64,000 nt of DNA, from IMG/VR virus record IMGVR_UViG_3300025715_000001; one strand, given 5' to 3'. The notes under the pieces were generated by a model. The model ran no database searches. It was not told the origin of the DNA and was given only the letters and a program-made list of their open reading frames with translations. Shown here piece by piece: positions 44,265-64,000 of the stretch (its first letter is position 1; each line of letters starts with the position of its first letter). Both the position numbers and the translations under genes were made by a program. The stretch comes from a virus.

Positions 44265-45389
44265 ATGGCCGTCTATGCGCTGGAGGTCATCGCTGCGGCT
44301 CGCGACCGGCTGGACGATTACGGCGGTGATACCGGCACGACGCCAGCGGGGTACTATGCCTACTGGCAATACAGCGATGCCGGGTGTTTATGGCGCAATA
44401 CTGAACTCACCCGGTATCTGCACCAGACCCTGCGTGACCTGGGCCAGCGGCAGCCGCTGCTGGACGATACCCGCGCCCGGTATACGATGACGCTGGTGGC
44501 GGGAACGCGCCAGTATGCGGTGCCAGCAGAGATTGTTCGGATTGAATCCGTGATCCGCGCCTCGGACGGTGAACCGCTCGCCAAAGCGACCGTGCCTGAA
44601 ATGCAAGCGGTCGCCAAATGGCATCGCCATCAGCGCGAACTGCTGGCGGATGACTGGCGCTCCAGCGCGGACAACTACCCGACGCATTATCTGCTGGATG
44701 AGAAACACGGGTATTTGACGGTCTACCCGACGCCCTCCGCCGATTACCTGGATACGCTCTATCTGGTGGTCCGGCGCACCTTTTTGACCGAGGTAGACTG
44801 GACGACGCTGGCGCATCAATCCACCACCGGCGCGGAGTTACTCACGTCGGCGGGTTGGACGGTGGGCACGGGCTGGGCGGAGTCGCCCGACGATACGTTC
44901 ACCCACAGCAGCGGCACAGCGGCCCTGAGCCATTCCGCCACGATCACCGCCAGCACGGCCTATCGGTTGACGCTGACCGTGACCGGGTGCACGGCGGGCA
45001 GTTGCACCGTCGCCGTAGGCGGCCAGACCGTGACCGGCATCACTGCCAGCAGTACGTTGACCCTGACCGCGACCACGACCGGCGCGTTCACAGTGACGCC
45101 GACCACGGATTTCAACGGCGTCTGCGCGTTCAGCCTGCTGGCCGTGGCGGCACTGACCGCTCTTGCGGATATTCCCGATCATGCGTTTGACGCGCTGGTT
45201 GCCGGGGTGTGTGCGCGAGCCTATCTCAAGCGCGATGCGGACACTCATTCGCCGCAACTGGCGGCGCAGTGCGAAGCGGAATTCACCCGCTATGCCGGCC
45301 CGCCGCGCAGCTTCCTGAATCAGGAGGCGGACGCCCGCTGGGCGGATAACCCGGAAGCGATCACGCCCCGGACCTGGCTGGCACGGTGA
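44265..45389 (+). CDS. hypothetical structural protein with a Thr/Ala-rich beta-type insert
   Basis: 374-aa ORF. Confidence 0.5.
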   Translation: MAVYALEVIAAARDRLDDYGGDTGTTPAGYYAYWQYSDAGCLWRNTELTRYLHQTLRDLGQRQPLLDDTRARYTMTLVAGTRQYAVPAEIVRIESVIRASDGEPLAKATVPEMQAVAKWHRHQRELLADDWRSSADNYPTHYLLDEKHGYLTVYPTPSADYLDTLYLVVRRTFLTEVDWTTLAHQSTTGAELLTSAGWTVGTGWAESPDDTFTHSSGTAALSHSATITASTAYRLTLTVTGCTAGSCTVAVGGQTVTGITASSTLTLTATTTGAFTVTPTTDFNGVCAFSLLAVAALTALADIPDHAFDALVAGVCARAYLKRDADTHSPQLAAQCEAEFTRYAGPPRSFLNQEADARWADNPEAITPRTWLAR

Positions 45390-45412
45390 GCGTGGCAAAT
45401 GGAGAAATGGAC

Positions 45413-45952
45413 ATGAAAAAGATTATTAGTTTGTTCTGCCGTAACTATGACGGAGACCGTCTGGTTAAAGATGAAATTGCCCATGGAGCGGAATGGGTAA
45501 TTGCTGGAGAAGGTAAGGCAACGCGCAAATGGGACGGAACATGTTGCATGGTACGCAATGGGCGGTTGTTTAAGCGTTATGAAGTACATCCTGGCAAGAC
45601 CCCGCCTGTTTATTTTGAGCCGGCAAATACCGTTGATGAAATCACAGGGAAGCAACAAGGATGGCGTCCTGTTAGCGATGGGCCAGAAGACAAGTATCAC
45701 CGGGAAGCATTTACTGGAACTGAGCCAAATGGTACGTATGAATTATGCGGCCCAAAGATACAAAGCAATGTCGAAAATTTCGACAGGCATGTTTTAATTC
45801 CCCATGGAACGCATCCAGTAGATGCGCCGCGCACATTTGGCGAATTGCGTAAATGGTTGGAGACGGCGGGCATTGAAGGAGTTGTATGGCATCACGATGA
45901 TGGGCGCATGGTGAAAATCAAGGCAAAAGATTTTGGATTGCGCCGTAGTTAA
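45413..45952 (+). CDS. ATP-dependent ligase-like nucleotidyltransferase (RNA/DNA-ligase fold)
   Basis: KATRKWDG (KxDG motif I), ELCGPKIQ, EGVVWHH.DGRMVKIKAKDF (motifs IV/V). Lower GC than its neighbours. Confidence 0.5.
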   Translation: MKKIISLFCRNYDGDRLVKDEIAHGAEWVIAGEGKATRKWDGTCCMVRNGRLFKRYEVHPGKTPPVYFEPANTVDEITGKQQGWRPVSDGPEDKYHREAFTGTEPNGTYELCGPKIQSNVENFDRHVLIPHGTHPVDAPRTFGELRKWLETAGIEGVVWHHDDGRMVKIKAKDFGLRRS

Positions 45953-45997: not shown

Positions 45998-48394
45998 ATG
46001 CAACGATCCCTGCACGACTATCTGACGGGCGGCCCAGTACGCGGCCCTGGCACCCCGACCAGTGACAGCATCCTGGCGCGGCTCTCGAACGGCGAGTACG
46101 TCCTGCCCAAGGTGGCCGTGGATCAGGTCGGTGTCGAGAATCTGGAGGCGATCCGGCGCGCGGCACTGGCGAAGACGCCCAAGCTGGCGCTGGGCGGGCC
46201 GATTTCGGGCGGGCTGAATTTCCAGAGCGAAGAACCCACGTCTACCACGTTTTATCCATCCGGCCTCCCAACAGCATCCGCCCCCTCGTTCGGTGATGCG
46301 ATTGGCGGTACAAATACCGGGATCAAACTGGGCGGTTCTCCAGCCGCAACGCCGCCCGGTTCACTGAACTCGTATGGCAACGACATGTCACTGGCCAACC
46401 GGATGAATGCCGGGGCTGAGGCGATGCGCACGATGCGCGAAGGTTCTGCCGCGCCACCCGCCAAGCCCGCTGATGATTTTGCGACGACCCTGGCCAAGGC
46501 CCTGCAAGCCAACGACCCCGCGAAACAGGCCGATGAGGCGCGAAAGGCCGCGCAAGCCAAGGCCGATCCGCTGGACGTGGCAAGTGGACGGTTTGACCGG
46601 GAGTATGCGCCGGGGATGGCGGCGGGCGGGTTGATCAGTCAAAAACAGTGGGAAGGGTTGCCGAGGTTTGCGGAGGGAACTCCTGCTTCTCCAGACGAAG
46701 AAAGTGACGGAGAATTTGATTGGAATCGGGGATTACTCCCCCAAGCGATTGACGCGATTCAGCGAATCCAAACGATCCCGCCAGCCGAACGTACCAGAGC
46801 GCAAAACCTGTTTACCGGGCGGGGACTTTCCGGAAAAGAACAAGAAGCACTCGTTCCGCCTTCTCCGAAACCTACCCCATTATCGCCAACCGGACAGGTG
46901 GTTTCAACACCAATACCATCTGCGGCCCCGCCTGCGCCATCATCGGTTAGCGCGGATGATAGGCAGCGTTATATCGCGTTAGAGGATCAGCTAAAAAAAT
47001 CGGGAGGAACGCCGCCGCCTAGACCTCCTTCAATGATGGGGCCGACAGCAACCCCTACGCCATCGCCAAAAGCGCAGACTGGAGCTGTGACGACGGGCGT
47101 GGCCACATCGCCAGGTTCGGTAACGCCGCCCGCCGTACCCTCCTTTCCCTCACTCATTCCTGGTGGCAGTTGGCAAGACTTGGCGCAGCCCGGCGAATGG
47201 GAACAGACTAAACAAGCTCTGCAAAATCGCAATCCTACTCCCGCCAAGAGCGTGATGCTGCAACCCGGCGCTCGTGATGCTGGCGTCTACGCGCAGCAAG
47301 TCGGCGGGAAGATTCTAGCCAATGGCCCAGGCCCCGGCATCGGCCCACAAGCTGTAGTCGCGGCCCCCTCCCGCCCCATCGGCACTCAGTCGTACACGAC
47401 CGGCCAGCCCTTTGAGCCGTCGCAAGGAACGGCGCCCCCGCCGCCGCTAATGGGGTCCCAGCGGATTATGTCCGGGAATGGTGTTACCGGACCCGTCACC
47501 ACGGGCGGATCCAATGTCCCAATTTACCAGACCGACTACACCGTGTTCGGCCCCAAAGGCCAACAGGGCACACTGTCGGTCACCGGCCCCGATCAGCGCG
47601 TCGGCGGCGGAACCGTGTCGCAACCCGATCAAGGCAACGGCGGGACCGTCGAGGGCAACGTGGCGGCGCTCAATCGCCAGTACGAAGCCGTGAAATCCCG
47701 CAACGAAGCCTATGGCTGGGGTGGCGCTTCCGGTTCCGCATTGCCCGCCGCGCCCGCCTCAGTGGATATGTGGGCGCGTCCCGGTGATTCGTTTGGGGAC
47801 TCCCAGATGCGCCAGGCGCGGTACGAGGGGCTGCTGAAAGACGCTGCCAACCAGAAAGGATTGGGCGCAAAACGCCGCGCTGCCGCGATGATTGATGCGG
47901 CCACCGGGCTGCTCGCCCCCGGCGCGGCAACCGCCAAGCTCAACGCCGAACAACAGCAGGCCGCGAACAGCCTGACCGGGCAACTGGCTCAGGCGCGCGC
48001 TCAGCAAGAGGCGTCCAAGTATGGCGCGGATGTCGGGCTGGCCGGCCACAAATACACGGCAGATGCGAGCTTGGCCGGAGCGCGGCTCAAGGCCGAGCAA
48101 GAGGCCCAGCAAGCAAGCCGTGCTGCCACGCAAAAAGATAACGAAATTTCGATTAGCGCATATCGGGCAAGAACCGAAGCGGATCGCGTCAAAAAAGAAA
48201 TGGCGGGATTATCAACCGCTGAAAAAAATGAGGCTATTTTGCGTTTAGCGGATCGGTTATCGCAGTTACCCCAAAATTCGCCAGAAGCCATAAATATCCG
48301 GACGGTATTGCAGTACCTGCAACCGTCGAGTAATCAAGACGATGCGCTGGCGGCGACAGAGGCACTGATAAAAGCGCAAGCTGCCGCCAAATAA
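45998..48394 (+). CDS. large low-complexity virion protein (internal or ejection-type, inferred)
   Basis: 798 aa, P/A/G/Q-rich. N-terminal GGPVRGPGTPTSDSILARLSNGEYVLP segment. Confidence 0.5.
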   Translation: MQRSLHDYLTGGPVRGPGTPTSDSILARLSNGEYVLPKVAVDQVGVENLEAIRRAALAKTPKLALGGPISGGLNFQSEEPTSTTFYPSGLPTASAPSFGDAIGGTNTGIKLGGSPAATPPGSLNSYGNDMSLANRMNAGAEAMRTMREGSAAPPAKPADDFATTLAKALQANDPAKQADEARKAAQAKADPLDVASGRFDREYAPGMAAGGLISQKQWEGLPRFAEGTPASPDEESDGEFDWNRGLLPQAIDAIQRIQTIPPAERTRAQNLFTGRGLSGKEQEALVPPSPKPTPLSPTGQVVSTPIPSAAPPAPSSVSADDRQRYIALEDQLKKSGGTPPPRPPSMMGPTATPTPSPKAQTGAVTTGVATSPGSVTPPAVPSFPSLIPGGSWQDLAQPGEWEQTKQALQNRNPTPAKSVMLQPGARDAGVYAQQVGGKILANGPGPGIGPQAVVAAPSRPIGTQSYTTGQPFEPSQGTAPPPPLMGSQRIMSGNGVTGPVTTGGSNVPIYQTDYTVFGPKGQQGTLSVTGPDQRVGGGTVSQPDQGNGGTVEGNVAALNRQYEAVKSRNEAYGWGGASGSALPAAPASVDMWARPGDSFGDSQMRQARYEGLLKDAANQKGLGAKRRAAAMIDAATGLLAPGAATAKLNAEQQQAANSLTGQLAQARAQQEASKYGADVGLAGHKYTADASLAGARLKAEQEAQQASRAATQKDNEISISAYRARTEADRVKKEMAGLSTAEKNEAILRLADRLSQLPQNSPEAINIRTVLQYLQPSSNQDDALAATEALIKAQAAAK

Positions 48395-48451: not shown

Positions 48452-51400
48452 ATGGCGAATTGGTGGGATGCCCCGTCCGATGAATCGGCGGTTGCTGAAT
48501 CGGCTCCAACCCTGCTGGATACCGCGACCCTGGAGCGACAAGCCCGCCAGGCCCAACTGGCCGAATTGCTCCGCCCCACGCCCACGTCCGCCGAACCGTC
48601 CATCCTGTCGACGCTGGACAGCTACCGCCAAGCCAAAGCCGCTGCCGCGAATCCGCCCCCTGTCATAGCGGCGCCGGCAGTACCAGAAGATGCCAATCGT
48701 TCGCGCACCTGGGGAGAAGTAGGCGGCGACGTACTGGCCGGGTTGGCGCGCGGCGCGACTGGCATCACGCAGGGCATGGCCAATCTGGCCGATCTGGCCA
48801 CGTTCGGTGGCGTCTCGGCACTGACCAAAGCCGGTGGCAGTTTGGCGGATTCGCTGCTCGGCGGTCGCGGCGAAGGCTATACCCTCCAGGAAGCGAATCG
48901 AGAAATCGGACAAGCCATCGAAGGGATGGAATCGGCCCCGCTGCGCCAACAGCGCCAGCAATTCGCACGCACGCTGCAAGAAACCGGAACGCAGGGCGGC
49001 GTATCGGGGGCGCTGGATAAATTCGTCACCGGCGCCAAGGAAACCCTGACCAATCCGATGTTGTTGGGGCAGTTCGCTACTGAACAAGTCCCGATGATCG
49101 CCACGCTGGGCCTGGGCACGATCGGCACAGCAGCCAAGGCTGAAGCGGCGGCCAAAGCGGCGGGGCTGACCGGCCAGGCGGTTCGTGATGCAGGGATTCG
49201 AGCCGCCGAACGGGCGAACATTCTGGCATCAGGCGTGCTGGGTTCCGGGTTTAGCAGTCAGCAAGCAGCGGATGCGATCCTGAATGCGCCCATCGAGGAC
49301 CTGTTCAAGAACGAGCAATACGTCGAGTTAGCCAAGACCCTGGGTGATCGGGGCGCGCGGGCGGAACTGGCGCGCCAGGCCGGGTATCCCGCAGCGGCCA
49401 TCGCGGGACCTCTGTCGGCGCTGGCGGGCCGGATTACGGCACCGCTGGAAACGCGGGCGTTTCTGGGGCAACTCCCCAAGGGGATTACGCCGGCACTGGT
49501 TGCGGGCGGCAAGGAAGGACTGGAAGAAGCCCTGCAAGAACCCAGTGAACAATTCGGCTCGAATGTGGGCGAGCGGTTCGCGGGCATGGACAAATCCCTG
49601 TGGGAGGGCCTCCCGGAAGCAGCGGGCCAAGCCGGCGCTGCCGGTTTTCTGATGGGCTTGGGGTTAGGCGGCGTCAACGTCCTGCAAAATACCCGGTTGG
49701 AAGGCCAGCAAGCCGGCGCCACCGGCGAATATGCTGCCAAGCGCCTCGACCAGTTATCGCTGGCCGGGTTGACGGATGCGGACCTCGATACCGCGATCCA
49801 GCAAACCCAGCAAGTCATCGCCACGCCCAAGCTCCCGCCCGCCTTGCGCGACCGGCTCACCGCAGCGATGGGGCGGCTTAACGGCGATCAGCAGGCGCGC
49901 GCCAATGGCGATGCGCTGCGGCAAGCGTTCGGCGACTATGCGGCGGCTACGGCCCCCGAAGCCTTGGTCGACCTGCCCGCCGATGAGCAAAGCCGGGTTC
50001 TCCAGGAGGCTGCGTTTGGTACGCTGTTCGCGCCCCGCACCCGCAACACCCTGGTCGGGATGAGTGCGCCCGACAAGCTGAATCAGTTGAACGACGCCGA
50101 AATGGCGCAGGCCGGCCAGGTGGCGGTGGATGCGGCAACCCTGCTAGCGCGCGCCAATCAGCCCGAACTGGAACCGGAAATCCGGTCGCTGCTGGACGCC
50201 GCCCGCACCTACAGCGGCGAATTGCACCAGCGCCGGTCTGCCGCCGATTTAGCGAGTGAAGTCACTGGCCCGGACGGCGCGGATCGGGCACGCGCACTGC
50301 TGGACAGCGTGACCCGGATCAACGGCAACGCGCAACAGTTTCTCAGCCCTGAATATCAGCGGGCGACGCTGGCCGACGACCAGTTGCCCCGGCTGCTGGA
50401 GCGCGGCCAAACCCTGCTGCGCCTGGACGCCGATCCCGCCATACCGTTCAATCTCGCGGCGCCGCAACGGGCGGCGCTGACGACGGCGCTGGGCCATTTG
50501 CGCGCGGAACAGGAAAACCGACAAACCGAGGGCTGGCAACAACGCAACCAGACCCTCAGTCAGATCGAAACCCCCAAGGTCAAGGAAGTCGAGGCGGCGC
50601 TGACGCGCAAGGATGTTTCGACCTGGCTGAATGACAAATCGCGCGGCCCGCAGTGGTTGCCGGCGCTGCAAGGGGCGCTGGATCAGGCGGATGCGCGGAT
50701 CGCGTATCGGCAACAGATTGGCGCTACCGAGGCGGATGACTATCAACGCCTGGTCGCCAATCGGGCGCTGCTGCGCCAGAAGATCGAGACGCTGACCGCG
50801 CAAGCGGAGCAGGCGCGCAAAAAAGCGTTCGATGAGGATTGGCGGTTTGCCCCAGGCCAAGCATCCGCCAATGAAGTCACCGACGATCAGGGGCGGGAGT
50901 GGGTCCGCAATAAGGCCGGGCAGTGGGTCCCCAGATCTGCCGACCAGCAGCGGATTCATGATCTGGCCCTGCAACTGGATGCGCAAAACCGGCAACAGGC
51001 CGCTCAATCCGACGTAGCGCCGGATTGGCAACAGCGCCAGCAAGCGATCCTGGATCGGGAAACCGCCTTCCGGGAACAGCAGCAGCAAGCCAGCGAAGAG
51101 CGCCGATTCCAGCAGGATCAACAGCGACTGGAGCAGCAACGCCAGCAGGGGATTCGGCGGGCACAACTGGCCGCCCAGATGGGGCTGTCGCCCGACGAAC
51201 TCTTGCAACTGTCCGAAGTGAATACCCTCCGCGCCCGTGCTGGCCTGCCGTCCCTAACGGCGGCGGAGTTCAAGGCAGTGCGCTCCACGCTCCAGGGATC
51301 GCACCCCGACGGAACGCCGGCGATGACGCAAGAGGAATGGAACGCCGCGACTCGATTTTACCGTTCAGGAAAGAGCAAAAATGCAGAAACGCCATCAGGC

Positions 51401-51614
51401 GAACGAATCATTCTGACATCGGATGTTACGGAAAAAACGTTTAGAGAAAAATCGGCTGAATTTCTCAGAAAAATTCGGAGAAACTATATTGTCAGCGCCA
51501 TCCGCGACGGCAAGCCTGTCCCTCAAGCTGTTCTCGACGACTACCCCGATTTAGCGCCCAAAGCGATAACGCCGGCTTCGCCCGTAACTCCTTCCCCGAC
51601 CCCGGAATCCCCCA
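48452..51614 (+). CDS. module A of the stop-free frame: large virion-type protein with NO in-frame stop in this assembly
   Basis: ATG at 48452 with an AGGA upstream. Protein-like frame-2 translation up to ...DDYPDLAPKAITPASPVTPSPTPESP. One extra C in the C5 run 51609-51613 would create ...ESPQ-TGA overlapping the ATG at 51615. Confidence 0.5.
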
Positions 51615-54600
51615 ATGAGCCTAACGAAGCAAATCGAGAACCATCTACTGAAGCAGGGAGCGCCCTCGGAGTACGCCCAGGCCAAGGCGCGGGCCGTCGC
51701 CTTGCGCTATCAGCCCCCCGCTCGCCCCGCCGCACCGTCGAAGCCCTCGCCGACGCCGGGCGCATCGTCACTATTGACGAAGACGCCGGGCTGATTGAGG
51801 CGGTCGAAGAACAGGTTGATCCTGAAGACCCCAGCCTGATCTTTACCCGGCTGAGCGTCAACCGCGACCGCGCCCAGCAGTTGCTGGTCGAACGGGATGC
51901 GGCGCTGGGGTTGCGCTTCCCCGGCCTGGAACCGGGCCGGCTGGCCGAAGACCTGCAAATCGTTCCGACCTACCGGGAGGCGGCTGATCCTCAACGCGCG
52001 GCGGACACTGAAACCGACGACACCGCCGATGGCAATTGGCGGGTGTCCCTGGCCGGCGAGCCTGAGCGCGCCCACTCGGTTTTGATCCGCGCTGTGCGCG
52101 TGGACGACATCGAGAGCCAAGACCAGACGCTGTACGCGCCTGCCGGCCCGGTCTATCTGGGTCGCGGCAAAAACGAGCGCGACCTGGAAAGCCTCGTGCT
52201 GTACCGGGTAGGCGAGGACGCTACCCTGTACGACTTCCTGGATGCTATCGAACAGGCCAACGCCCGGCTGGTGGTGCGCGCCAGCGCCGAACGCAATCAG
52301 GCGACGCTGGACCGCTATTTTACCACCGCCGACACCCGCGCTCCGGTCTGGGTAGCGAAGGATGCGGATGGCGTGGTGGTGGACTGGTCCATCAGCCGGG
52401 AAGGGCTGCAACGCCGCCAAAGCGATACCGGCGCGACGCTGGAGCGCATGACCAAGCAGGACTGGCAAAGCCGCCAGCAGGACACGCCGATCTTCGAGGA
52501 CATCGCCCAGGCGCTGGAGCGGTTCGGCGCGGACGACGGAACGCTAGAGACCGCGCGGCAGCAGGTGGCCGGCCTCAAGGCGGAACTGGCCTTGTGGCAA
52601 AAGAGCCGCGCCGAAATCCCGGAGTACATGCCGGGCGGGCGGTATCACGTCGGCGTCCAGAAGGGCATCGTCGAACTGGAAAAGAGACTGGCTGAGGCTC
52701 AAGACACCCTGGCCGAAATCACCCTCCAGACCCCGCTGACAGCCCCGGACGGTTATCAGTTCAAGGCTGAGAAGAAAAAGGGAGGGCGCTGGTACAAGTT
52801 CTACTCGCAAGCGCCCAACGACCGGGAATGGAAGCCCATGGACGGCAGCGTTTCGGGATTGGATCCGCAGAATGCGCTGGCCTACCTGCAAGGCATCATC
52901 CAGCAAGAGCATCAGGCGGCTGAGGTAGGATCGGGGTCTGGGGTCGAATCCGAGCCCGCACCAACACCCGCGCTCACCCTGCTGCAAAAAGCCGCGATCA
53001 AGGTGATCTCCGAACAATACTATGGGGATGCGTGGCGGCTGGCGGGGCCGCACAACAAAGAGTTGCGGCGCGATCTTTACCAGAATCTCCTGGATGGTAC
53101 CGGCCAGAAAGCCACCATCGCCAATTCGGGCGTCGGCGCGATTCGAGATCGGTTGGTTGAACTGGCCGGGATCAGTAAAGAAGGCAAGGCGATTGTCGAG
53201 TGGGAAAACGAACTGACCGACTGGATGAAGAACGTGCTGGCGGCCAAGGGACCCGTGCCGGCGCCTCGTCCTGCCCCCACTCCCGCGCCCGCTGAACCCG
53301 TTGCCCAAGAATCGCCGTTAGGGCCGCTCGATGAGGCGCTGGTGCAACGCTGGGAAGCGACGCTAAAAGGTCAGCGCCGCGAAAAAGACCCACAAGCCGT
53401 CATCGCAGCCGCGCAAAAGCAACTGCAAGAACAAATCACTGGATGGAATACAGTACGCGCCGAATCCGACAAAGCATTACAGGATGCGGGAACGCGCCCG
53501 GACGGCAAACCTCGGCAGGTCGCCAATGCGGCGCTGATGAAGCGGTCGAAGAATTTAGCCGATCAGGCGGATAAGCTATTCCAGGAAATCCAGGACACGC
53601 GCGCGTTTATTGCGGCTACTGAGCGGCGGTATGGATTAACCCAACAGCCCGCTCCCGCCCCGCTCACCGAAGCCCAGCAAATCACCGAAGTCGAAGAATT
53701 GCTGTTTGACCAGTTGTTGAGCCAAGTGCCGATGCGTCACATGCTGGCCAACGACACCAATCAGTTGATGGTTGAAGTTGATTTAGTTCGCAAAGAAATC
53801 GGCACTCTGTTGGCGCAATGGATGGTAGAGCAGCTCGACGAGAATCCCAACGCCGACATCGGGGCGACTGTCAACCGAATTTACGAGGACTGGCAGAACG
53901 CCGACTACGCCGAGCGGATGACACGCCAACTCATCGCCACCGCCAAGACGATGCGGCAGACGGCGGCGACGGTCCCCGCCGCCCCCACTACCGTCGAAAC
54001 GCCCATTGGCCCCGCCCAAGCCAGACCGGCTGGGCCTGGAGTAACGGCGATTGAGCTGCCCGTGGGCGCAGCGACCCCGGCCCCGACGCCTGCGGCTCCA
54101 CCAGCCCGTCCTGCAGACTACGGCAAGGGCAACACCATCTTTACCGAAGACGCTGCCGCCAAGGCGCGCGAGTTGCTCAAGCGCAAGCTGGGGCAACTGA
54201 ACGCGGGGCTGGATCCGGAACTGATTCAGGCCGGCATCACCCTGGCCGGCTATCACATGGAAGCCGGCGCGCGGGCGTTTGCCGATTACGCCAAAGCGAT
54301 GATTAGCGACCTCGGCGAAGCGGCGCGTCCGTTCCTGCGCTCGTTTTATGAAGGCGTCCGCCATTATCCGGGCTTCGACAAGACGGGATTGACGCGGTCG
54401 AATGACTTGGATTACTCCGAGAAGTGGGAGATTTGGCCCGGCGATACGTTCAGGATCAAGGGCCAGAACAAGACGGTAGCCTGGCTGAATGAGCATCGCG
54501 TGTATTTTGAGGACGGCACTGAAGTTTCCGCTATCAATCTGGCGTCGGCCAAGCCCGATTGGGAATTGGTAGCCCGCGTCGGCGCAATGCCGCAGGAAGC

Positions 54601-54653
54601 GGCGCCAATAACCCCGAATTATGGTATACTCTCTACGGAATCTCCTGCATTAA
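51615..54653 (+). CDS. module B: starts in frame 0 (MSLTKQIENHLLKQGAPSEYAQAKARAVALRYQ) and continues in frame 2 after the C6 run; no in-frame stop
   Basis: GC3 and residue composition favour frame 0 for 51615-~51713 and frame 2 from ~51734 (TVEALADAGRIVTIDEDAGL...). The end coordinate is nominal. Confidence 0.4.
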
Positions 54654-54665
54654 AGGAGGAAAGCC

Positions 54666-54995
54666 ATGTTAATCCCACCGTCACGACCGCAACTGCTGCG
54701 GACAATAGACCTGGCGTTGCAGGATCAAGACCCGGAGCGGTATCAGCGCCTGCACCAGAGCCAGGAACTCCCGACCTTTCTTCAGAATCGGGCCGAGGAA
54801 ATGGAGGAGGCGTACTTCGAGGGCAAGGACGCGGTGATCGAGGGAATGCTGCGCTTTCAGCAAACCCAGCCGGAAGGGGACGCGGCGGCCTGGATCCAGA
54901 CCCAGAGCCTGGCGTTGTGGCACCAAATCCTGGCGGACTTCCTGGAATTCCGCCCACTGAGCGAAGCGATTACCGACTCCCCCTGGGAGGATTGA
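54666..54995 (+). CDS. 109-aa ORF in frame 0, nested within the open frame 2
   Basis: AAAGGAGGA SD at 54652-54660 and a TGgTATACT extended -10-like site at 54622-54630. GC3 is roughly 75% in this frame against about 40% in frame 2 (hand count). Confidence 0.65.
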   Translation: MLIPPSRPQLLRTIDLALQDQDPERYQRLHQSQELPTFLQNRAEEMEEAYFEGKDAVIEGMLRFQQTQPEGDAAAWIQTQSLALWHQILADFLEFRPLSEAITDSPWED

Positions 54996-57900
54996 CCCGC
55001 GAAGGCTCGTGGCTGGCGACTGCGCAACGCAACGCCGACATTCTCGAACTGGCGGCCCGCATCGAAAACGAGGGCCGCCCTGCCACCCCCGACGAACAAG
55101 CCCTGCTGGTCAAGTATGTGGGCTTTGGCGCGGGCGAAATCCGCAACAAACTGTTCCCGCCAGCAACGCCGGAAGAACTGACGCAAGACCCGGACGCCAA
55201 TCGCCGCATCCGTCCTGCCATCACCCGCCGCTATCTGCAAACCACCGGCATCAGTGCCGCCGAACAAAAGCGGTGGATCGCCGTCGCCGAACGCCTGGAA
55301 CGCGCCCTGACGCCCGACGATCAGGAAACCCTGCTGCGCTCCACTCAGTACGCCCACTACACCAGCGAATCCATCATCCGCTCGATTTGGCGGGCGATGG
55401 AACAGTTCGGCTTTGGTGGCGGCAAGGTACTGGAGCCGGGCATGGGCATTGGCAGTTTTGCCCTGGCCATGCCGGAAGGGATTTACCGCGCCAGTCAGTA
55501 TGTCGGCGTCGAGATGGACGGTCCTACCGCGCGCATCGCCAAGCTGCTGTCGCCGCGCCAGACCATCAATCAAGCCGATTTCACCAGGCAGTCGCTGCCC
55601 CGCGATTACTTTGACGTGGCGATTGGCAATCCGCCCTTCAGCCGCACCATCATCGAATCCGATCCTGAATACGCCGCGCGGCGGTTCTCGCTGCACGATT
55701 ATTTCTTTGCCAAGTCCATGGACCGGGTACGGCCCGGTGGGCTGGTGGTGTTCATCACCAGCCGGCACACCCTGGACAAGCAGAACGACAAGGCGCGCAC
55801 CTATCTGGCCGAGCGGGCCGATTTTCTGGGCGCGATCCGGTTGCCGCAAACGGCGTTCAGCGCCAATGCCGGCACCGAAGTCGTCACCGATGTGATCTTC
55901 CTGCGCAAGCGCCAACCGCTTGACGCGCCCGCAGGCGCCTCTTGGACCGGGCTGGACACGCTCACGACCGCCGATGGTCCCGTGGCGGTCAACGAATACT
56001 TTGTCGCCCACCCCGAAATGATCCTGGGCCAACCGCGCCTGAGCGGCAACCGGGACGATCTGAACCGGTACATCTCTGGCCTGCATCCGGGCGACTTTAC
56101 CGTGGTGTCCTACGACGACTCACCCGCCGAACTGGAAGCCCAGTTCGCCAAGGCGGTCGAAACGTTGCCGCGCAATCTCTACAGCCCGGTGCTGCAAGAC
56201 CCGGAAACGGTGCGCACCGTGACCGCCCAGCGCGATTTCGCACCCAAGACCAATCGGGAAGGAGCGTTGTACCTGGCCGATAACGGCACGCTGATGCGGG
56301 TCGAGAACGGCGCTGGGCGGCCCCTGAGCGAAGTTGCGCCCTGGCTGAAGCCCAAACAACTGCCGTTCGTCCAGGACTATCTGGGGCTGTTGCAGCAGGT
56401 ACGCGCCACCAAGCTAAGTCAATGGGAAGACGGCGCCTGGGAACAGGAACTGGCCGCCCTCAATGCCCGTTACGATGCGTTCCGCGCCCAGCACGGGCCG
56501 CTGCTGGCCTATACCGTGCAACAGCGGGTCGCGCCCGAAGTCAAGGAGACCTGGGCGGCGTTGACCGTCGAAGAGCGGCGCTGGGTGTTTGATGCGGCCA
56601 AGATTCCCTTCCAAGCCTGGGAGAAGATGACGCCGGAGACCAAACGCGCGATTGCGCAGGCACTGAGTGATCAGGCGGCGTTGCCGGCGGCGATTCGGGA
56701 CAAGCTGGCGGAACGCATCAGCGAAGACAATGACCTGCTCAGCGAAAGCCGAACCTTCCAAAACAAACGACTGTTGGAACTGGACAGCGACAGTTCGGTT
56801 GCCTACGCCCTGGAAAACATCAACGAACAGGGCGACATCGTTAAAGCCCCGTTCCTGAAGGGGCGCACCATTCGCCCGCCCCAAGCCCGGACCGTCGCCA
56901 CCCCTCAAGACGCGCTGGCGGTGTCGCTGGATCGCAAGGGCTATCTGGATTTGGCGGACGTGGCCGGCGAACTGGACCTCGACCGCGACGAGACGCTGGC
57001 CCGGCTGGGCACGCTGGTCTACCAAACGCCAGCGGGCGAATGGCAGTTAGCCGACGAGTACCTGTCCGGCGACGTAGTGACCAAACTGGCCGAGGCTGAA
57101 CTGGCGGCCCGCCTCAACCCAGCGCTGCAACGCAACGTCGAGGCGCTCCGCGATGTACAACCGATGCCCAAAGGAATCGGAAGCATCACGGTCAAGATCG
57201 GCGCGGGCTGGATCGAACCGCGCTACATCGAGCAGTTTGCGCGCGAGGCGCTGGAACTGCCGGCGCGAGTGACGTTTGACCCGCTGACGACCACCTGGCA
57301 AGTCCGGTCGGAAGATACCAGCGGACGCCGCAATGAACGGGCGGTGGCGCATCCCTATGGGGTGCTCAACCAGCTATCGCCCTACGAGGTGTTGCAGGCG
57401 GCGTTGCGCAATACCCGCATCACGATCAGCGACACCGTGCGCAATCCCGACGGCAGCAAAGCCACAGTCACCAACACCGAACTGACGCTGCGGGCGAACG
57501 AACTGGCGAAGCAGATCGGCGAGCAGTTCAAAGCCTGGGTCTGGCGCGACGGCGTGCGGGCGCTGGATTTGGTCAATACCTACAACGACCGGTTCAACCG
57601 GTTGGCGGGACGCAAGTTTGACGGTTCCCATCTGACCCTGCCGGGCTTGTCGCTGCGGTATGTCCTGCACCCCCATCAAAAACGGGCGATCTGGCGCATT
57701 ATCCAAACCGGCAATACTTATTTGGCGCACGCGGTCGGGGCCGGTAAAACCCTGGAACAGATTGTGGCCGGTATGGAGCAACGGCGGTTGGGACTGATTC
57801 GGCGCCCGATGTACGTGGTGCCCAATCACATGCTGGAGCAGTTCGCGTCCGAGTTCATGGACGCCTACCCCACCGCGAACATCATGGTGGCCAGCGGCAA

Positions 57901-60900
57901 AAACTTTACCGGCGACAACCGCAGACGGTTCCTGGCGCAAGCGGCGCTCAACAATCCCGACGCCATCATCCTCACCCACAGTTCGATGAAGCTGATCGGA
58001 ATGCGGGAAGAAACCCTGGCCCCGGTACGCCGCCAAATCCTGAACGACATCCAGGAAGCGATTGCCGAACTGGGGGCCGGGCAGGACACCCGCATTTTGC
58101 GGTCCCGGCTGGAACAGCAATACGAACAGGCCCAGCAGCGGTTTGACAAAATGATCGGCAGTGGCGACCGGAGCGGCACGTCCATTCGCTTTGAAGACCT
58201 GGGCGCCGATTTCGTGTTCTACGACGAAGCCCACGAAGCGCGCAAGCTGGATTTCACCACCGGGCTGCAAATCAAGGGTATTGATCCGAAAGGCTCCTGG
58301 CAGGCGCTGGATTTGTACGTCAAGACCCGCTGGCTGGAAGCGCAGCATCCAGGACGGTCATTTGTGTTCGCCTCCGGGACCCCGGTCACGAATACGATGG
58401 GCGAACTGTTTACCGTGATGCGCTTTTTCGATGAAGCCAGTTTGCGGCAACTGAACGTCCATACCTTCGATGCCTGGGCGGCGATGTTCGGCGAAGAGGT
58501 GATGGAATACGAGCCGGACGCCACGGGGGTATTGAAACCGGTTTCGCGGTTCTCCAAGTTCAACAACGTGCCGGCGCTGATGGCGCAGGTGCGGTCCTTC
58601 ATGGATATTTTGACCGGCACCCAGTTACGGTCGGTGGTCAAGAACATCCCCCAGATCGAAGGCGGCGCCCCGGCGATGCTGGAAGCAGACAAGTCGCCGG
58701 ACCTGAATACCTACATGCAGCAGGTGCTGGCGCCGCGCCTGGAGCAATCGCGGAGATTCAAACCCTCTCGTGAGGAACCGGGTAATCCAGACCCGATCAT
58801 GGCGATCAATAACGATGCTCTGCTGGCGTCCATTGATTTGCGCTTTACCAACCCAGCCTTGCCCAGCGACCCCCATTCCAAGCTCAACCGGATGATTGAC
58901 GAAATCATCACGGACTATCGCGCGGGGGCAGACCAGATTTATCGAGACCGCGACGGGCAGCCGATGGTGTTGCCGGGCAGTACCCAAATCGTGTTTTACA
59001 ACGTGGGCTTCGGCGAAGGGGTGTTAAACCGGCGCGGATTCGATGCGCGCGCCTGGGTGAATCGGCGGCTTAAGCAAGCCGGGATTCCGCTGGATCAAGT
59101 CGCCTGGTTCGATGACGCCAAAACCGCCGCCAATAAAGAGCGGGTCTTCCGCGATGTTCGCGCCGGTAAGGTGCGCATCCTGCTGGGGTCGGCCAAGAAA
59201 ATGGGCACGGGCGTCAACGTACAAAATCGGCTGGAAGTCTTGCACTACCTGGATCCGCCCTGGTATCCGGCGCTGGTCGAGCAGCCGTTCGGGCGCATTC
59301 TGCGGCAAGGCAACCAGAACCCCACGATTCGGATCAAGCTGTACGGCACCAAAGGCACGTATGAGGCGGCGCAATGGGGGCTGCTGGCGCGCAAGATGCG
59401 CTTTATCGAAGCGGCCTTGTCGGGCGACAGCACGATTGACAGCATTGAAGACGTGTCGGCGGCTTCGGTGTACGAACAGGCCACCGCCGCCGTAGCGGGC
59501 GACCCGCGTTTCAAACAACTGGCCGACCTGACCAACACCATTCGCAAGCTGGAAACCCTGCGCGCCGCGCATCAGCAAAATCAGGCGGCGTTGCATGGCC
59601 GGCAGCGGGACCTGGAAAACAGTCTGGACTGGAAAACCCGCTATGCGCGGCATTGGCGCGTGGTGGAAGAGGAATTGGGCGAATACGCTGAACGGGCGGT
59701 CTTCGAGTCCGGCGAACTGAACGGCAAGACCTACACCAAGCGCAACGAATTTGCCGAAGCCCTGTTCCAGGAAGTCAATCGGCGCTTGCCGAAGCTTCAG
59801 GATGAAGGCGCGCTGGCGCAACTGGCGCAGCGCCCCATTCAGTTAGGCAAGCTCAACGGGCGATTCCCAATCGTTCTGCAAGGCAAGGCGGCGGGCCAAT
59901 ACGATACCAAAGAATTGAAATTGGTCGTCACGGTTCCCAGCGAGGAATTTTGGATTCGGAAACACGTGGGTTCGGATGTCGAAACTGAATTCCCTCTCGC
60001 ACAAAGCGGCTACGACCTCGGTAGTGCGCTGAACAAAATGAGCAGTAGCGGTCAAACCCGCCGCAGTTACGAAGACGAAATTCGGATCGCGCAAGAAGAC
60101 TTACGACGCACGATGGCCCAAATCGGCGCTCCATTCCCGCAAGAAGCGGAATTGGGCCGGGCCATTGCCGACCGCGCGGCGCTCGAACAGGAGATGACCG
60201 AAGCCAAGATGCCGATTCCGGCGGATGACCGCTTGGTGGCGGAAGCCGAAGCGCGGCGCATCGAACATCAGGAACAGGCCCAGCGCATCGCGCAAGCAAC
60301 TCCCACCACCCCGCCCCAACGCTTTGCCATTGCCGCCACCCCCGCCTCGGTGCGCGCCTCGCTGGAAGCCATTGCCGGTGACCGGATCGTACAAGACCTG
60401 ATAGACGCCGGCTCGCTGGCGCTGGTCGCTACCCAGCAGGACGCGGTACGCCGGTCGCAAGGCCGGATTCAGATTCCCCCCGGCCAGCGGGTCGGCGGCG
60501 CGGTAGACCCGGAAACCGGGACCGTGTACCTGATCGCCGAGCACATCCGCCCGGAAGACGTGGCCGGACTGCTGCGTCACGAGGTCGCGGTGCATCAGCG
60601 GCGCCTGGGGCTGGATCAACCCAAGCCGCGCGCCCTGCGGCTCGCCATGGCCTTGTTGCGCCTGACGCCGGCACGGCAATGGATGGGCGAGACCACATTC
60701 GCGGGCGTGCTCGACCAGATGGAACGGATGCGGAAGGCCGGTAACGTTCGCGTGGTCGCGGCTTTCGAGCAGGCCCTGAAGGCGATGAAGGCGCTGAACC
60801 AGGACGTGAACAATCCGCAGTTGGTCGCCGAGGAGGCGCTGGCGTACCTGGTCGGCGACCAGGCCAATGCCGACCTGCCGCTGTTCCGCCGCATCCTGGC

Positions 60901-63900
60901 CGCCGTGCGCGCCTTCCTGACCCGCGCCGGGTTCAAGCTGGACTTGACCACCGATGATCTGGTGCTGCTGGCGCAATCGGCGCTGGAAACCGCCGCGCAG
61001 CGGGAAGTGCGGGCGGGGGCGATGACGCGGGGCGTGTTTGGCGCTGAAACCACTGCCAGTTTGATGGATCGGTTCAGGAAGACCGGGTTTATCAGCAATC
61101 GAGACGTGCTGGGGATCCTGGGGGACTACCCGCAATATCTGAATACCGTGGCCGAATACATCCTGAGCCAGCATCAAAAGCTGATCGAGGGGAAGGTCAC
61201 GCCGCGCGATGTCGCCAAAGCCTATCTGCTGACCCTGGCCAGCCAGCGGTCGGATGCCATCAATCCGGCTGTGATTCAGGCGCGCACCGGGTTTGTCGTG
61301 CCCGAACGGTTTATTGACCAGAACGGCAAAGTGCGCCCGGAAGAAGCGACGGCGGCCTGGCTGTTGTCCCCCAATGGCAAACGGGCGCTGGACGCGATTG
61401 AACAAGGCCGCCTGGAACCCGCGTTGTGGGAAGAAGGGTTGCAGATACGGGATGCTTTCGGAGCCAATGTCCCCCGCAACCAAGCGTTTACCGAGCGCAC
61501 CTATCAAAAAAATTATGGCGGAAAGCCGCGCACCGAAACCCGCCAGTACAACAATCTGCACGAAATCCTGGCCGTCACGCAGGCCATCAACGCCGCCAAG
61601 GGCGATACGCAAAAGCTGGATGTCGCGTTGCGCAATATGGCCGGGATTGGCCCCGGCAAGACGGGGTTCATCAAGCATTTTCTGGGACTGGGCGATACCC
61701 CGACCGCGGATGCAGTGGAAATCAATACCTGGCTGACCGGTTTGGGTAGCGTCAAAGGGGTCGAAACCGAAGCAGCGACGCTGGCGCGCGAGTTTTCCGA
61801 CAAGAGTGACAAGCCAAAATTGGCAGAGGGCTTCGTTTCCAGAATTGAGCGCCGATTCAACCAGTTAAAGGATCAAACCAATATCCCGGAAAAATATAAG
61901 GATAATCGGGTTTACCAGCATCTCATGCACCATTGGTTGTGGGAACGCGCCAAAGGGCTGCAAACGACCCATGCCGGGGTCTACGAAGCGATGCTGCGGG
62001 CAGCGATCGCCCAGGAAGACGCCGAAGCGGCCCGGCAGTACGCCGAGGTCGTGGCCCGCTACACCAACCCGGACGGTTCCAAGAAAGCCGGCTGGCTGAA
62101 AGCGCCGAACGGGCAACCGACAAAGCTCAACGAGCGGCAGTGGGTGCAGGTAAGGACTCCCAACACCGGCGCGTTCTCCCCGGTCAACCCCGATATTCGC
62201 TATGCCTATGCCGGCGAGCGGGCGGCGACGGGCCAGTACGGCGTGCCATGGCCTACCGATTTTCCAAACATTACGCCGTTGTCCACCATCGCCAAGCTGA
62301 AAGCGCATCCCGAGTACCTTGCAGCCAAGACCGGCGACCGCGCAGCAGCGGTGCGCGTCATCAGCGCCATCATGCAGCGTGACCAGCAAACCAAGTTGCG
62401 CGCGCTGGCCGCTCGGTATCCTGATGCCATAGTCGTACCAGTTCATGCGGTGGAACGTAATGGGACCAATAAGATTCCAAGAACGTTTGCCGATTTTATC
62501 AGTGAACTGACCGGGCTATCGGTTGATACTTCTATCGTGCAAACCAACAAAGTCGGGCGAACCAGCCAAAATACCTGGCATCGCCTGGCGTTTCGCCCGC
62601 AGTTTGATGGCGACGTGCGCCCTGGCGCCCGCTATCTTTTAGTCGATGATGCGGTTACGGGCGGCGGTACGTTTAGCGAATTGCGCCAGTTCATTGAAGG
62701 GCGCGGCGGGCGAGTCGTACACCTGGCGGCTATCGGCGCGGCGCAATTCAGTGCTAAAATAGCCTTATCCGAATCCACCTATCAAACCCTGGAGGCTCGT
62801 TATGGCGCTGAAAACCTCGAACGGTTCCTCCGCGACCATTCCCTCTACGGCGGCAACCCTCGCGCCCTCACCGAGTCCGAAGCCCGCACCCTCCTGGGCG
62901 CCGGGACCCTTGACGCCGCAGGAGATCGAATCACTGCGGCAATCGAACAAGAGCGACTCAGAAGCCAATCGCCGGGAGTTCAAGGCGCTGTTGCAGAAAC
63001 AACGCCTGACACCGTAACGCCGCCTTCGGGCGGCCCCCAACGCTTCGCCATCGCCATCGCCCCCGGCACCCCGCCGCAGATGACCCTGCCGCCGATGACG
63101 CGGGTCGAGGTGCTGCGCCGGGCGATTCAAGACCGGTTCCTGCGCTTCAAGACCCTGCAAGACTGGCTCAAGAAGACAGGCATCAACCTGACGCCCGACG
63201 CCGACGTGTACGGCGAGGAAGAACGCAGCGTTAAACGCTTCGCCGCGCAGGCGCAAGACTTCCGCGACCAGACCCTGACCCCGCTGGTGCAAGCGGCGGG
63301 CCAGGCCGGCTATGCCGTCACCGGGGGCGACTTCATCGCCGCGCTGATGGACGGCCAGTCTTTGCCGGCGCGTTTCAAGCCCAGCATCCCGGAATACCTG
63401 ATCGCCCAACACGCCGCCGAGCGCAACCGGGCCATCGCCAAGATCAACCCGCGCTATGCGGATCCTGATCAACCGGGGTCCGGGCTGACCGACGCTGAAG
63501 CGGCAACCATTCTGGCCCGCTACCGCGCCCTGCCCAACTTCGCCGCCTTCGAGCGCATGGCCGAGCAGTTCCGGGCCATCGCCGAGGGCACCAAAAACCT
63601 GTTGCTGGACGCCGGCATCCTGAACGCCGAGACGGTCGCCGCCTGGGATGCGGCCTATCAGCACTATGTCCCGCTCAAGGGCGGCCCGGACGACGCGCCC
63701 GCGAAACAGGGTACTGGCCCCGGTAATTCAGTGGTGGCCCGCCAGCGCCGTGCCATGGGCCACGATCTGCGCGCCGAGAACGTACTGGAAAACATCTTCC
63801 GCGACCGGGAACGCGCGCTCTTCAACATCGAGAAAAACAAGGTCGGCCAGGCGCTCAAACAATTCGTGGAGCAGGCCAACAATCCGGCCATCGGCACGGT

Positions 63901-64000
63901 CGGCCAGCCCGAAAAGCACGCTACTTTGATCCAGGGCTGGCTGCACGAGGTCTGGATTGAGGGCCGCCCGCTGGGGGCCTACCAGAGCTACAACGACGCC
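54992..64000 (+). CDS. DarB-like polyvalent protein: N6-adenine MTase + SF2/SNF2-type helicase + further domains including a PRTase-like domain; 3' end outside the window
   Basis: TTG at 54992 overlaps the TGA of the 109-aa ORF. VLEPGMGIGSF at 55427-55459, GNPPF at 55625-55639, GAGKT at 57737-57751, DEAH at 58223-58234, QPFGRILRQGN at 59282-59314, YLLVDDAVTGGGT at 62633-62671. No stop before 64000. Confidence 0.75.
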   Translation, partial: MTREGSWLATAQRNADILELAARIENEGRPATPDEQALLVKYVGFGAGEIRNKLFPPATPEELTQDPDANRRIRPAITRRYLQTTGISAAEQKRWIAVAERLERALTPDDQETLLRSTQYAHYTSESIIRSIWRAMEQFGFGGGKVLEPGMGIGSFALAMPEGIYRASQYVGVEMDGPTARIAKLLSPRQTINQADFTRQSLPRDYFDVAIGNPPFSRTIIESDPEYAARRFSLHDYFFAKSMDRVRPGGLVVFITSRHTLDKQNDKARTYLAERADFLGAIRLPQTAFSANAGTEVVTDVIFLRKRQPLDAPAGASWTGLDTLTTADGPVAVNEYFVAHPEMILGQPRLSGNRDDLNRYISGLHPGDFTVVSYDDSPAELEAQFAKAVETLPRNLYSPVLQDPETVRTVTAQRDFAPKTNREGALYLADNGTLMRVENGAGRPLSEVAPWLKPKQLPFVQDYLGLLQQVRATKLSQWEDGAWEQELAALNARYDAFRAQHGPLLAYTVQQRVAPEVKETWAALTVEERRWVFDAAKIPFQAWEKMTPETKRAIAQALSDQAALPAAIRDKLAERISEDNDLLSESRTFQNKRLLELDSDSSVAYALENINEQGDIVKAPFLKGRTIRPPQARTVATPQDALAVSLDRKGYLDLADVAGELDLDRDETLARLGTLVYQTPAGEWQLADEYLSGDVVTKLAEAELAARLNPALQRNVEALRDVQPMPKGIGSITVKIGAGWIEPRYIEQFAREALELPARVTFDPLTTTWQVRSEDTSGRRNERAVAHPYGVLNQLSPYEVLQAALRNTRITISDTVRNPDGSKATVTNTELTLRANELAKQIGEQFKAWVWRDGVRALDLVNTYNDRFNRLAGRKFDGSHLTLPGLSLRYVLHPHQKRAIWRIIQTGNTYLAHAVGAGKTLEQIVAGMEQRRLGLIRRPMYVVPNHMLEQFASEFMDAYPTANIMVASGKNFTGDNRRRFLAQAALNNPDAIILTHSSMKLIGMREETLAPVRRQILNDIQEAIAELGAGQDTRILRSRLEQQYEQAQQRFDKMIGSGDRSGTSIRFEDLGADFVFYDEAHEARKLDFTTGLQIKGIDPKGSWQALDLYVKTRWLEAQHPGRSFVFASGTPVTNTMGELFTVMRFFDEASLRQLNVHTFDAWAAMFGEEVMEYEPDATGVLKPVSRFSKFNNVPALMAQVRSFMDILTGTQLRSVVKNIPQIEGGAPAMLEADKSPDLNTYMQQVLAPRLEQSRRFKPSREEPGNPDPIMAINNDALLASIDLRFTNPALPSDPHSKLNRMIDEIITDYRAGADQIYRDRDGQPMVLPGSTQIVFYNVGFGEGVLNRRGFDARAWVNRRLKQAGIPLDQVAWFDDAKTAANKERVFRDVRAGKVRILLGSAKKMGTGVNVQNRLEVLHYLDPPWYPALVEQPFGRILRQGNQNPTIRIKLYGTKGTYEAAQWGLLARKMRFIEAALSGDSTIDSIEDVSAASVYEQATAAVAGDPRFKQLADLTNTIRKLETLRAAHQQNQAALHGRQRDLENSLDWKTRYARHWRVVEEELGEYAERAVFESGELNGKTYTKRNEFAEALFQEVNRRLPKLQDEGALAQLAQRPIQLGKLNGRFPIVLQGKAAGQYDTKELKLVVTVPSEEFWIRKHVGSDVETEFPLAQSGYDLGSALNKMSSSGQTRRSYEDEIRIAQEDLRRTMAQIGAPFPQEAELGRAIADRAALEQEMTEAKMPIPADDRLVAEAEARRIEHQEQAQRIAQATPTTPPQRFAIAATPASVRASLEAIAGDRIVQDLIDAGSLALVATQQDAVRRSQGRIQIPPGQRVGGAVDPETGTVYLIAEHIRPEDVAGLLRHEVAVHQRRLGLDQPKPRALRLAMALLRLTPARQWMGETTFAGVLDQMERMRKAGNVRVVAAFEQALKAMKALNQDVNNPQLVAEEALAYLVGDQANADLPLFRRILAAVRAFLTRAGFKLDLTTDDLVLLAQSALETAAQREVRAGAMTRGVFGAETTASLMDRFRKTGFISNRDVLGILGDYPQYLNTVAEYILSQHQKLIEGKVTPRDVAKAYLLTLASQRSDAINPAVIQARTGFVVPERFIDQNGKVRPEEATAAWLLSPNGKRALDAIEQGRLEPALWEEGLQIRDAFGANVPRNQAFTERTYQKNYGGKPRTETRQYNNLHEILAVTQAINAAKGDTQKLDVALRNMAGIGPGKTGFIKHFLGLGDTPTADAVEINTWLTGLGSVKGVETEAATLAREFSDKSDKPKLAEGFVSRIERRFNQLKDQTNIPEKYKDNRVYQHLMHHWLWERAKGLQTTHAGVYEAMLRAAIAQEDAEAARQYAEVVARYTNPDGSKKAGWLKAPNGQPTKLNERQWVQVRTPNTGAFSPVNPDIRYAYAGERAATGQYGVPWPTDFPNITPLSTIAKLKAHPEYLAAKTGDRAAAVRVISAIMQRDQQTKLRALAARYPDAIVVPVHAVERNGTNKIPRTFADFISELTGLSVDTSIVQTNKVGRTSQNTWHRLAFRPQFDGDVRPGARYLLVDDAVTGGGTFSELRQFIEGRGGRVVHLAAIGAAQFSAKIALSESTYQTLEARYGAENLERFLRDHSLYGGNPRALTESEARTLLGAGTLDAAGDRITAAIEQERLRSQSPGVQGAVAETTPDTVTPPSGGPQRFAIAIAPGTPPQMTLPPMTRVEVLRRAIQDRFLRFKTLQDWLKKTGINLTPDADVYGEEERSVKRFAAQAQDFRDQTLTPLVQAAGQAGYAVTGGDFIAALMDGQSLPARFKPSIPEYLIAQHAAERNRAIAKINPRYADPDQPGSGLTDAEAATILARYRALPNFAAFERMAEQFRAIAEGTKNLLLDAGILNAETVAAWDAAYQHYVPLKGGPDDAPAKQGTGPGNSVVARQRRAMGHDLRAENVLENIFRDRERALFNIEKNKVGQALKQFVEQANNPAIGTVGQPEKHATLIQGWLHEVWIEGRPLGAYQSYNDA

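Follow-up and report, generated by a model that had tools for sequence, protein, structure and literature searches.

The 64,000-nucleotide stretch of viral DNA from the IMG/VR record IMGVR_UViG_3300025715_000001, which as a whole we call the window, is tailed-phage genome sequence and breaks off inside a single giant gene, the subject of this analysis (Table 1). The original prediction for this DNA had placed here a DarB-like polyvalent protein beginning at 54992, over 3,000 amino acids (aa) long and still open at the window edge, that joins a DNA methyltransferase (MTase), a superfamily 2 (SF2) helicase and a phosphoribosyltransferase (PRTase)-like domain. Frame 2 is indeed still open at the edge, being free of stop codons from 48431 to base 64000, and every motif quoted in the prediction occurs once, in that frame, at or near the position given. 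The extent, however, was underestimated. Bases 54992-64000 hold 3,003 stop-free codons, but the gene starts at the ATG at 48452, runs through 5,183 codons in the window and encodes 5,817 aa in total, so that the predicted coordinates fall short of it by 6.5 kb.

Table 1. Features of the window discussed in the text (aa, residues of the giant protein).
Feature	Position	Strand	Remarks
Terminase	36293-37738	+	
Portal	37740-39752	+	
Major capsid protein	40986-41984	+	
SU10-type adaptor	44265-45389	+	
188-aa RLIG1-like open reading frame, between the adaptor gene and the 798-aa gene	45386-45952	+	phrog_14301 'RNA ligase', 3e-67
798-aa protein, directly upstream of the giant gene	45998-48394	+	no Pfam domain
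Giant gene, predicted polyvalent protein	48452..64000	+	5,183 codons in window; full protein 5,817 aa
N-terminal region, aa 1-1868	48452..54055	+	no recognisable domain; Ala/Gln/Glu-rich
Module B, aa 1869-1981	54056..54394	+	uncharacterised; phrog_938 at 3e-30
Pre-MTase helical region and N6-adenine DNA methyltransferase core, aa 2173-2535	54968..56056	+	
SNF2-type SF2 ATPase/helicase, aa 3024-3725	57521..59626	+	GAGKT, DEAH, ASGTPVTN, QPFGRILRQGN
Module F1, aa 3949-4197	60296..61042	+	uncharacterised; invariant His...His (HEVAVH = HExxxH) and EE
First QRFAIA junction motif, aa 3956	60317..60334	+	
Module F2, aa 4200-4517	61049..62002	+	uncharacterised, mostly helical; between F1 and F3
Module F3, aa 4518-4582	62003..62197	+	short conserved segment; directly after F1 in relatives
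Predicted ComF-like type I phosphoribosyltransferase domain, aa 4583-4850	62198..63001	+	PRPP loop YLLVDDAVTGGGT
C-terminal conserved block, aa 4860-5183 in window	63029..64000	+	continues outside window to aa 5817
Second QRFAIA junction motif, aa 4863	63038..63055	+	
342-aa open reading frame	937-1965	minus	matches phage 'transposase' families (phrog_506, 3.8e-73)

The full length of the product is given by a public protein of 5,817 aa (P0095), retrieved by a profile search of 1.8 billion representative proteins, which has the same ATG start and is identical to the open reading frame (ORF) of the window over its first 5,183 residues. The ORF thus runs 634 codons past the window edge. A metagenome contig of 4,082 bases (L006; ERZ1649853 NODE-7153) shares 96% identity with the last 950 bases of the window, and in it the giant ORF closes at the same stop, 634 codons later; this contig is a second variant of the phage, present in another metagenome. 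The remainder of the gene was not found by a protein scan of viral_contigs, nor by exact-pattern scans of viral_contigs and genome_contigs.

The extreme size of the frame, and the presence of long antisense ORFs (for example 60101-61678 on the minus strand), raise the question of whether it arose as an artefact of assembly or by the fusion of several genes, and so does not encode a single polypeptide. We consider this extremely improbable. Eleven independent contigs from several samples carry the identical 5,817-aa product, and in the 96%-identical relative the frame likewise runs open as far as the same stop. The GC content at the first, second and third codon positions (high, low, high) is constant across all 1.5-kb tiles of the ORF and follows the pattern of the capsid, portal and terminase genes, which also speaks against an artefact or a fusion. 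In addition, Bcep22-like phages have colinear genes for proteins of 4,500-4,600 aa that have been confirmed by proteomics. Chance is excluded by the 5,190 stop-free codons, together with matches to phrog_10089 at E=0 and to phrog_22413 at 3.6e-44. Since the same protein is called on 11 contigs and the second variant shares its stop, we conclude that the gene is real and is 17,454 bases long, plus a stop codon. No transmembrane segment in the window part of the protein rises above a Kyte-Doolittle mean of 1.6. The precomputed annotation of the public protein also lists the newer Pfam families PF28553 (WH_1), PF28554 (DUF8437) and PF28555 (Helicase_dom), without checked positions.

Both enzymatic assignments that the original prediction made for the centre of the protein, an N6-adenine MTase followed by an SF2/SNF2-type helicase, are borne out. 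The MTase carries motif I as VLEPGMGIGSF (55427-55459) and the NPPF of motif IV within GNPPF (55625-55639). Pfam Eco57I matches over aa 2382-2456 with 30 bits, above its cut-off of 25.3; phrog_11801 ('DNA methyltransferase') matches at 1.5e-58, and the best sequence match of the methylase in the PDB is M.TaqI. Joined to it C-terminally in the same frame is an ATPase in which motifs I, II, III and VI of the SNF2 type are all found. Its stretches include HPHQKRAIWRI (57668-57700), the Walker A motif GAGKT (57737-57751), DEAH (58223-58234), SGTP, KMGTGVNVQ (59198-59224) and QPFGRILRQGN (59282-59314), the last of the form QxxGRxxRQG. The Pfam models ResIII, Helicase_C, DEAD and SNF2-rel each score just under their own cut-offs; phrog_62 ('DNA helicase') matches at 2.8e-31, and the second ATPase lobe finds SsoRad54, a Sulfolobus SNF2/Rad54 protein, in the PDB at E=0.003.

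The proposed likeness to DarB likewise holds. The match to phrog_10089, the 'DarB-like antirestriction' family of PHROGs, amounts to 1,393 bits, and P1 DarB aligns in three colinear BLAST blocks, the first between the MTase and DarB residues 91-275 (33.5% identical, 3e-24) and the other two in the helicase (3e-14 and 4e-11). P1 DarB is a virion protein that shields entering DNA from type I restriction. It has the same order of N6-adenine MTase and then SNF2-type helicase, but at 2,255 aa consists of these two parts only, and its identity to the giant protein is 22-34%. A tblastn search finds 150 phage records, the best matches being 'DarB-like antirestriction' proteins that are 43-45% identical over ∼1,600 aa, from the Burkholderia phages Bcep22, BcepIL02, BcepMigl, DC1, JC1 and CSP3 and from many Ralstonia phages. 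We conclude that the giant protein contains an EcoKI/TaqI-like N6-adenine MTase fused to an SNF2-type ATPase, that is, the DarB 'DNA methylase-helicase dyad' described by Iyer et al. 2017 (PMC5512222).

Likeness to Bcep22 gp75, which over the dyad amounts to 41-45% identity, extends to other parts of the protein. Bcep22 gp75 and JC1 gp69, from Lessievirus and related Ralstonia phages, are likewise giants (4,500-4,600 aa) encoded at the end of a podovirus virion module. The giant protein is colinear with gp75 in three blocks: module B, which is 48% identical to gp75 residues 1319-1433 and also occurs in another giant protein (P0101); the dyad and post-helicase region (aa 2173-3919 here), at 41%; and the C-terminal block, where gp75 residues 3677-4592 are 33% identical to aa 4860-5805 here (2e-121). 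Gp75 also shares an F1-like HExxH region, whereas the PRTase, F2 and F3 are absent from Bcep22-type proteins. The N-termini differ too. That of the Bcep22-type proteins has an annotated lytic transglycosylase domain, while the N-terminal 1,868 aa here are unrelated and lack such a domain: searches of Pfam and PHROGs gave no SLT domain match anywhere in the ORF, and BLAST found no similarity between this N-terminus and that of gp75. The region contains low-complexity and probable coiled-coil stretches and has no Pfam or PHROG match; the one similarity found, to Ralstonia phage Dimitile over aa 236-389, is weak.

Beyond the post-helicase region, aa 3920-4859 form a middle cassette in which the protein departs from Bcep22 gp75, and which splits into F1, F2, F3 and the PRTase. 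The PRPP (phosphoribosyl pyrophosphate)-type loop noticed earlier, RYLLVDDAVTGGGTF, lies where it was reported, at 62630-62674 in frame 2, and occurs once. The domain around it matches phrog_22413, a family of 242 aa with no assigned function. A search of 5.8 billion proteins yielded 49 PRTase relatives, mostly solo proteins of ∼240 aa, some of which NCBI names phosphoribosyltransferase; one relative (P0066) passes the Pfam family Pribosyltran (PF00156) at 29.8 bits, and several carry a precomputed PF00156. In the family alignment of 49 sequences the DD and the GG(T) of the PRPP loop are invariant in 49/49, as are further residues (E, N and Q) of the loops that surround the active site. This alignment includes the window copy, which consequently has all of the family-invariant residues. 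R129 of the domain is nearly invariant and may correspond to the conserved arginine that ComFC has after strand 2.

Structure prediction supports the domain assignment. The AlphaFold model of the PRTase has a predicted local distance difference test score (pLDDT) of 91.2 and a predicted template modelling score (pTM) of 0.87, the family profile finds adenine PRTases in the PDB at 1e-5, and Foldseek returns 74 PDB matches at E≤0.001, of which all 50 listed are PRTase-fold proteins. Because the model is confident and every listed match has this fold, we regard the predicted PRTase fold as sound. PRTases of NAD salvage (NARP) and of the Ter system were considered as relatives and rejected: they belong to other folds or clades, and none is among the matches.

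The PRTase was the element that the original prediction did not recognise in the context of a polyvalent protein and singled out for attention. Such a clade has in fact been described already: Iyer et al. 2017 devote a section to PRTases in phage polyvalent proteins, a distinct group with a DD motif and an arginine shared with ComFC-like PRTases, whose simplest form is a fusion to MuF, which has related solo genes, and whose role they call 'enigmatic' (PMC5512222). The domain here, with the same DD catalytic motif and affinity to ComFC, is of that clade, and a PRTase in a polyvalent protein is not new. The MuF arrangement is seen in a 579-aa protein of Moraxella phage Mcat8, encoded directly after the portal gene, which has Phage_Mu_F and a C-terminal Pribosyltran domain, and solo copies lie in phage tail or integrase neighbourhoods. 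Our literature search found no paper testing the function of the clade.

The family is very widespread. A family profile search detects 3,098 clusters when the limit is E≤0.001 and 1,332 when it is E≤1e-30; the 148 best representatives include 80 proteins of ≥1,000 aa and 53 of ≥2,000 aa. In the phage collection the PRTase is not seen as part of a giant protein in any record. Among 16 sampled PRTase giants the partners are LPD38 (in 10), ART-PolyVal (7), LPD1 (5), LPD5 (5), inorganic pyrophosphatase (3), LPD39 (3) and ddrB-ParB (2), and one of the 16 has ResIII and Helicase_C by Pfam. LPD38, ART-PolyVal, LPD1/5 and inorganic pyrophosphatase are thus the usual partners; what sets the present protein apart is its fusion to the DarB dyad. 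A dyad detectable by phmmer accompanies the PRTase in just one of the 148 best representatives, namely this protein. The union of PRTase and DarB dyad is uncommon, yet it amounts to one more rearrangement of modules in a class whose defining trait is such rearrangement.

The original prediction found no nameable motif in about 2.5 kb between the helicase and the PRTase. The ∼2 kb there resolve into three uncharacterised modules, F1, F2 and F3, which other polyvalent proteins also have. Their homologues sit in polyvalent proteins with ART-PolyVal, LPD3, LPD37, RadC-JAB, NlpC/P60 or M48 domains. The HEVAVH of F1 aligns with the HEAFH region of Bcep22 gp75, and F1 has no Pfam or PDB match. We rejected a zincin metallopeptidase, given that the motif is HExxxH and not HExxH, that one relative has HGVGVH, and that neither database offers a match; a metal site is possible. 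At the protein level F1 is 92% identical to the N-terminus of a 998-aa protein (L005, 2984-5980) composed of F1, LPD37, ART-PolyVal and LPD3, whose gene adjoins an integrase in an 80-kb metagenome contig. Such identity in an integrase-bearing contig suggests a recent exchange of the module between the phage lineage and an integrated element.

F2 gives an AlphaFold model with a pLDDT of 82.7 that has no significant Foldseek match in the PDB; a profile search of the PDB also returned nothing, and in BFVD the module is found only in two uncharacterised phage proteins, at ∼1e-10. The stretch GIGPGKTGF...DAVE had suggested an HhH-GPD DNA glycosylase, an idea that we discarded as the Foldseek matches to Ogg are non-significant (3knt, probability 0.44, and 3i0x). 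F3 is 66-96% identical by BLAST to segments of three proteins (P0053, P0054 and P0056). In several relatives F1 runs straight into F3, which makes F2 look like an insert between the two.

Two QRFAIA sites, identical in DNA at 21/23 bases, bracket the F1-F2-F3-PRTase cassette, and QRFA(I/A)A also stands at module boundaries in seven polyvalent proteins (P0050-P0053, P0056, P0059 and P0060). The motif may be a processing (protease) site or a recombination joint.

The C-terminal block comes after the PRTase in 15 other giant proteins. Within it phrog_616, phrog_14770 and phrog_10691 match, and just outside the window, at about aa 5501-5685, lies a Pfam LPD38 domain (93.5 bits; cut-off 27), which the precomputed annotation also reports. 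Assignment to the polyvalent-protein class, as originally predicted, agrees with what is found: a single frame without stops combines the unrelated enzymatic domains of MTase, SNF2 ATPase and PRTase, a domain restricted to the class (LPD38) is present, and immediately upstream the same strand carries the terminase, portal, capsid and adaptor genes.

Our preferred explanation, to which as a whole we give a probability of roughly 75%, is that the gene is the largest of a podovirus virion module and encodes a 5,817-aa injected polyvalent protein of the Bcep22 gp75 / P1 DarB type, with a DarB dyad and a PRTase. Mass spectrometry of purified virions has revealed both JC1 gp69 (4,515 aa) and Bcep22 gp75 (PMC9144972). 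By analogy with these homologues, it is plausible, as had been proposed, that the protein is packaged in the capsid and leaves it along with the DNA. Like P1 DarB, the dyad would then protect the entering DNA from type I restriction, translocating on it and methylating or shielding it in cis. The PRTase might be active as a PRPP-using enzyme in the first minutes of infection, and could synthesise or break down some molecule of nucleotide type, or else act on the incoming DNA in the way of ComFC. Conceivably, the polyprotein may also be cut at the repeated QRFA(I/A)A junctions, which would free its modules.

Several points weigh against this explanation. The N-terminal 1,868 residues have no part in it. 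The window copy of the PRTase reaches 15.7 bits against Pfam Pribosyltran, whose cut-off of 26.3 it does not pass, and the Foldseek TM-scores are modest (0.3-0.45), since only the core superposes. The idea of cleavage draws on a repeated motif and nothing else, and of P1 DarB and the helper proteins DarA, Hdf, DdrA/B and Ulx, our comparison covers DarB. Finally, ComFC, PurR and PyrR illustrate that PRTase folds are able to act as binders rather than as enzymes.

This last point leads to a different view of the PRTase, in which it is non-enzymatic, binds PRPP, a nucleotide or single-stranded nucleic acid in the manner of ComFC, PurR or PyrR, and serves to sense the metabolism of the cell or to hold the entering DNA. 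The ranking of structural matches is in keeping with this: H. pylori ComF (7p0h) is first in Foldseek, with the lowest root-mean-square deviation, and PurR chains are third and fourth. ComF is described as a DNA-uptake protein that binds single-stranded DNA (PMC9005727). Nonetheless, we think a pure binder somewhat unlikely, as the DD pair and the GGT of the PRPP loop, and also the E, N and Q of the active-site loops, are invariant, and the inorganic pyrophosphatase that accompanies the PRTase in some bearers (3/16 of the giants) suggests turnover and fits a reaction that releases pyrophosphate. These same two observations, the retention of invariant active-site residues and the pyrophosphatase of some relatives, are what incline us, if weakly, towards a catalytically active PRTase.

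ShosT with bound PRPP (8zvc) is also among the structural matches, and with it comes the notion that the PRTase acts as a toxic effector by depleting host PRPP or channelling it elsewhere, the action proposed for the defence toxin ShosT, and so shuts off the host or excludes rival elements. The toxicity of ShosT requires PRPP binding (PMC12961424), and the MuF-fused relatives of the PRTase resemble MuF polymorphic toxins. We regard this as improbable. A phage needs nucleotides, so that using up PRPP at entry would seem to work against it; next to the solo PRTase copies there was no sign of an immunity gene; and the mechanism of ShosT is itself unsettled. ComFC and ShosT, although they share with our domain a type I PRTase fold tied to incoming DNA and match the model in structure, are only 9-12% identical to it in sequence. 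In DNA uptake ComFC, which contains a zinc finger, acts together with ComFA and DprA, and ShosT has an extra N-terminal domain and a DprA-like antitoxin; here we find neither such partners nor such extra domains.

Returning to an injected and active PRTase, a bolder version would give the ComF-like enzyme a substrate outside metabolism, perhaps a host defence protein or DNA that it phosphoribosylates, or a nucleobase-derived immune signal that it consumes, with QRFA(I/A)A as the cut sites for its release. We are doubtful of this version. If true, it would define a widespread class of counter-defence enzymes, of ∼3,100 protein clusters.

What we describe is a large new example whose two parts are of already described kinds, and not a new kind of system; the gene itself leaves current understanding unchanged. 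It does illustrate how far modules are shuffled in injected phage proteins, with at least three enzymes in one 17.5-kb gene that takes up about a quarter of a genome of this size class. It also bears on a very common phage PRTase family that has been enigmatic in role since it was first described in 2017. As the PRTase here adjoins a DNA-tracking anti-restriction motor, the protein is a natural context in which to study that family.

For replication the window also encodes a Dda-like helicase, a primase, Sak4 and a Cas4-type exonuclease; it has genes for an HNH endonuclease and a transposase as well. Searches of 50,697 phage records and 72,556 plasmid records gave no relative at the nucleotide level. 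The nearest relatives of the capsid protein, at 40-45%, are those of Pseudoalteromonas phage vB_Pun_Y3, Xanthomonas phage DES1, Stenotrophomonas phage StenR_269 and Pseudomonas phage Rollin. Capsid and portal are of a lineage other than that of Bcep22, with DES1 and vB_Pun_Y3 closest at 43-45%. A 2,156-aa protein of DES1, the closest capsid lineage, was tried as a homologue of the giant protein's 'backbone' and rejected, as the two have no similarity.

The genes directly upstream of the giant gene had been labelled internal-virion type, a label that our analysis does not support; they are the SU10-type adaptor, the RLIG1-like fragment and the 798-aa protein with no Pfam match. The 188-aa ORF covers only the C-terminal quarter of the Pfam RLIG1 model and is an odd gene for a virion module. 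Likeness to tape-measure or injection proteins (motif GEYVLP) is confined to the first ∼70 residues of the 798-aa protein, a possible second ejection protein. At the other end of the window, the match of the 342-aa ORF to transposase families means that the early region of the phage may contain an insertion-sequence-like element. Outside the window, ∼1 kb downstream of the giant gene, contig L010 has an H-NS-like (Histone_HNS) gene of 148 aa (23711-24157), after which come three minus-strand genes of 627-669 aa.

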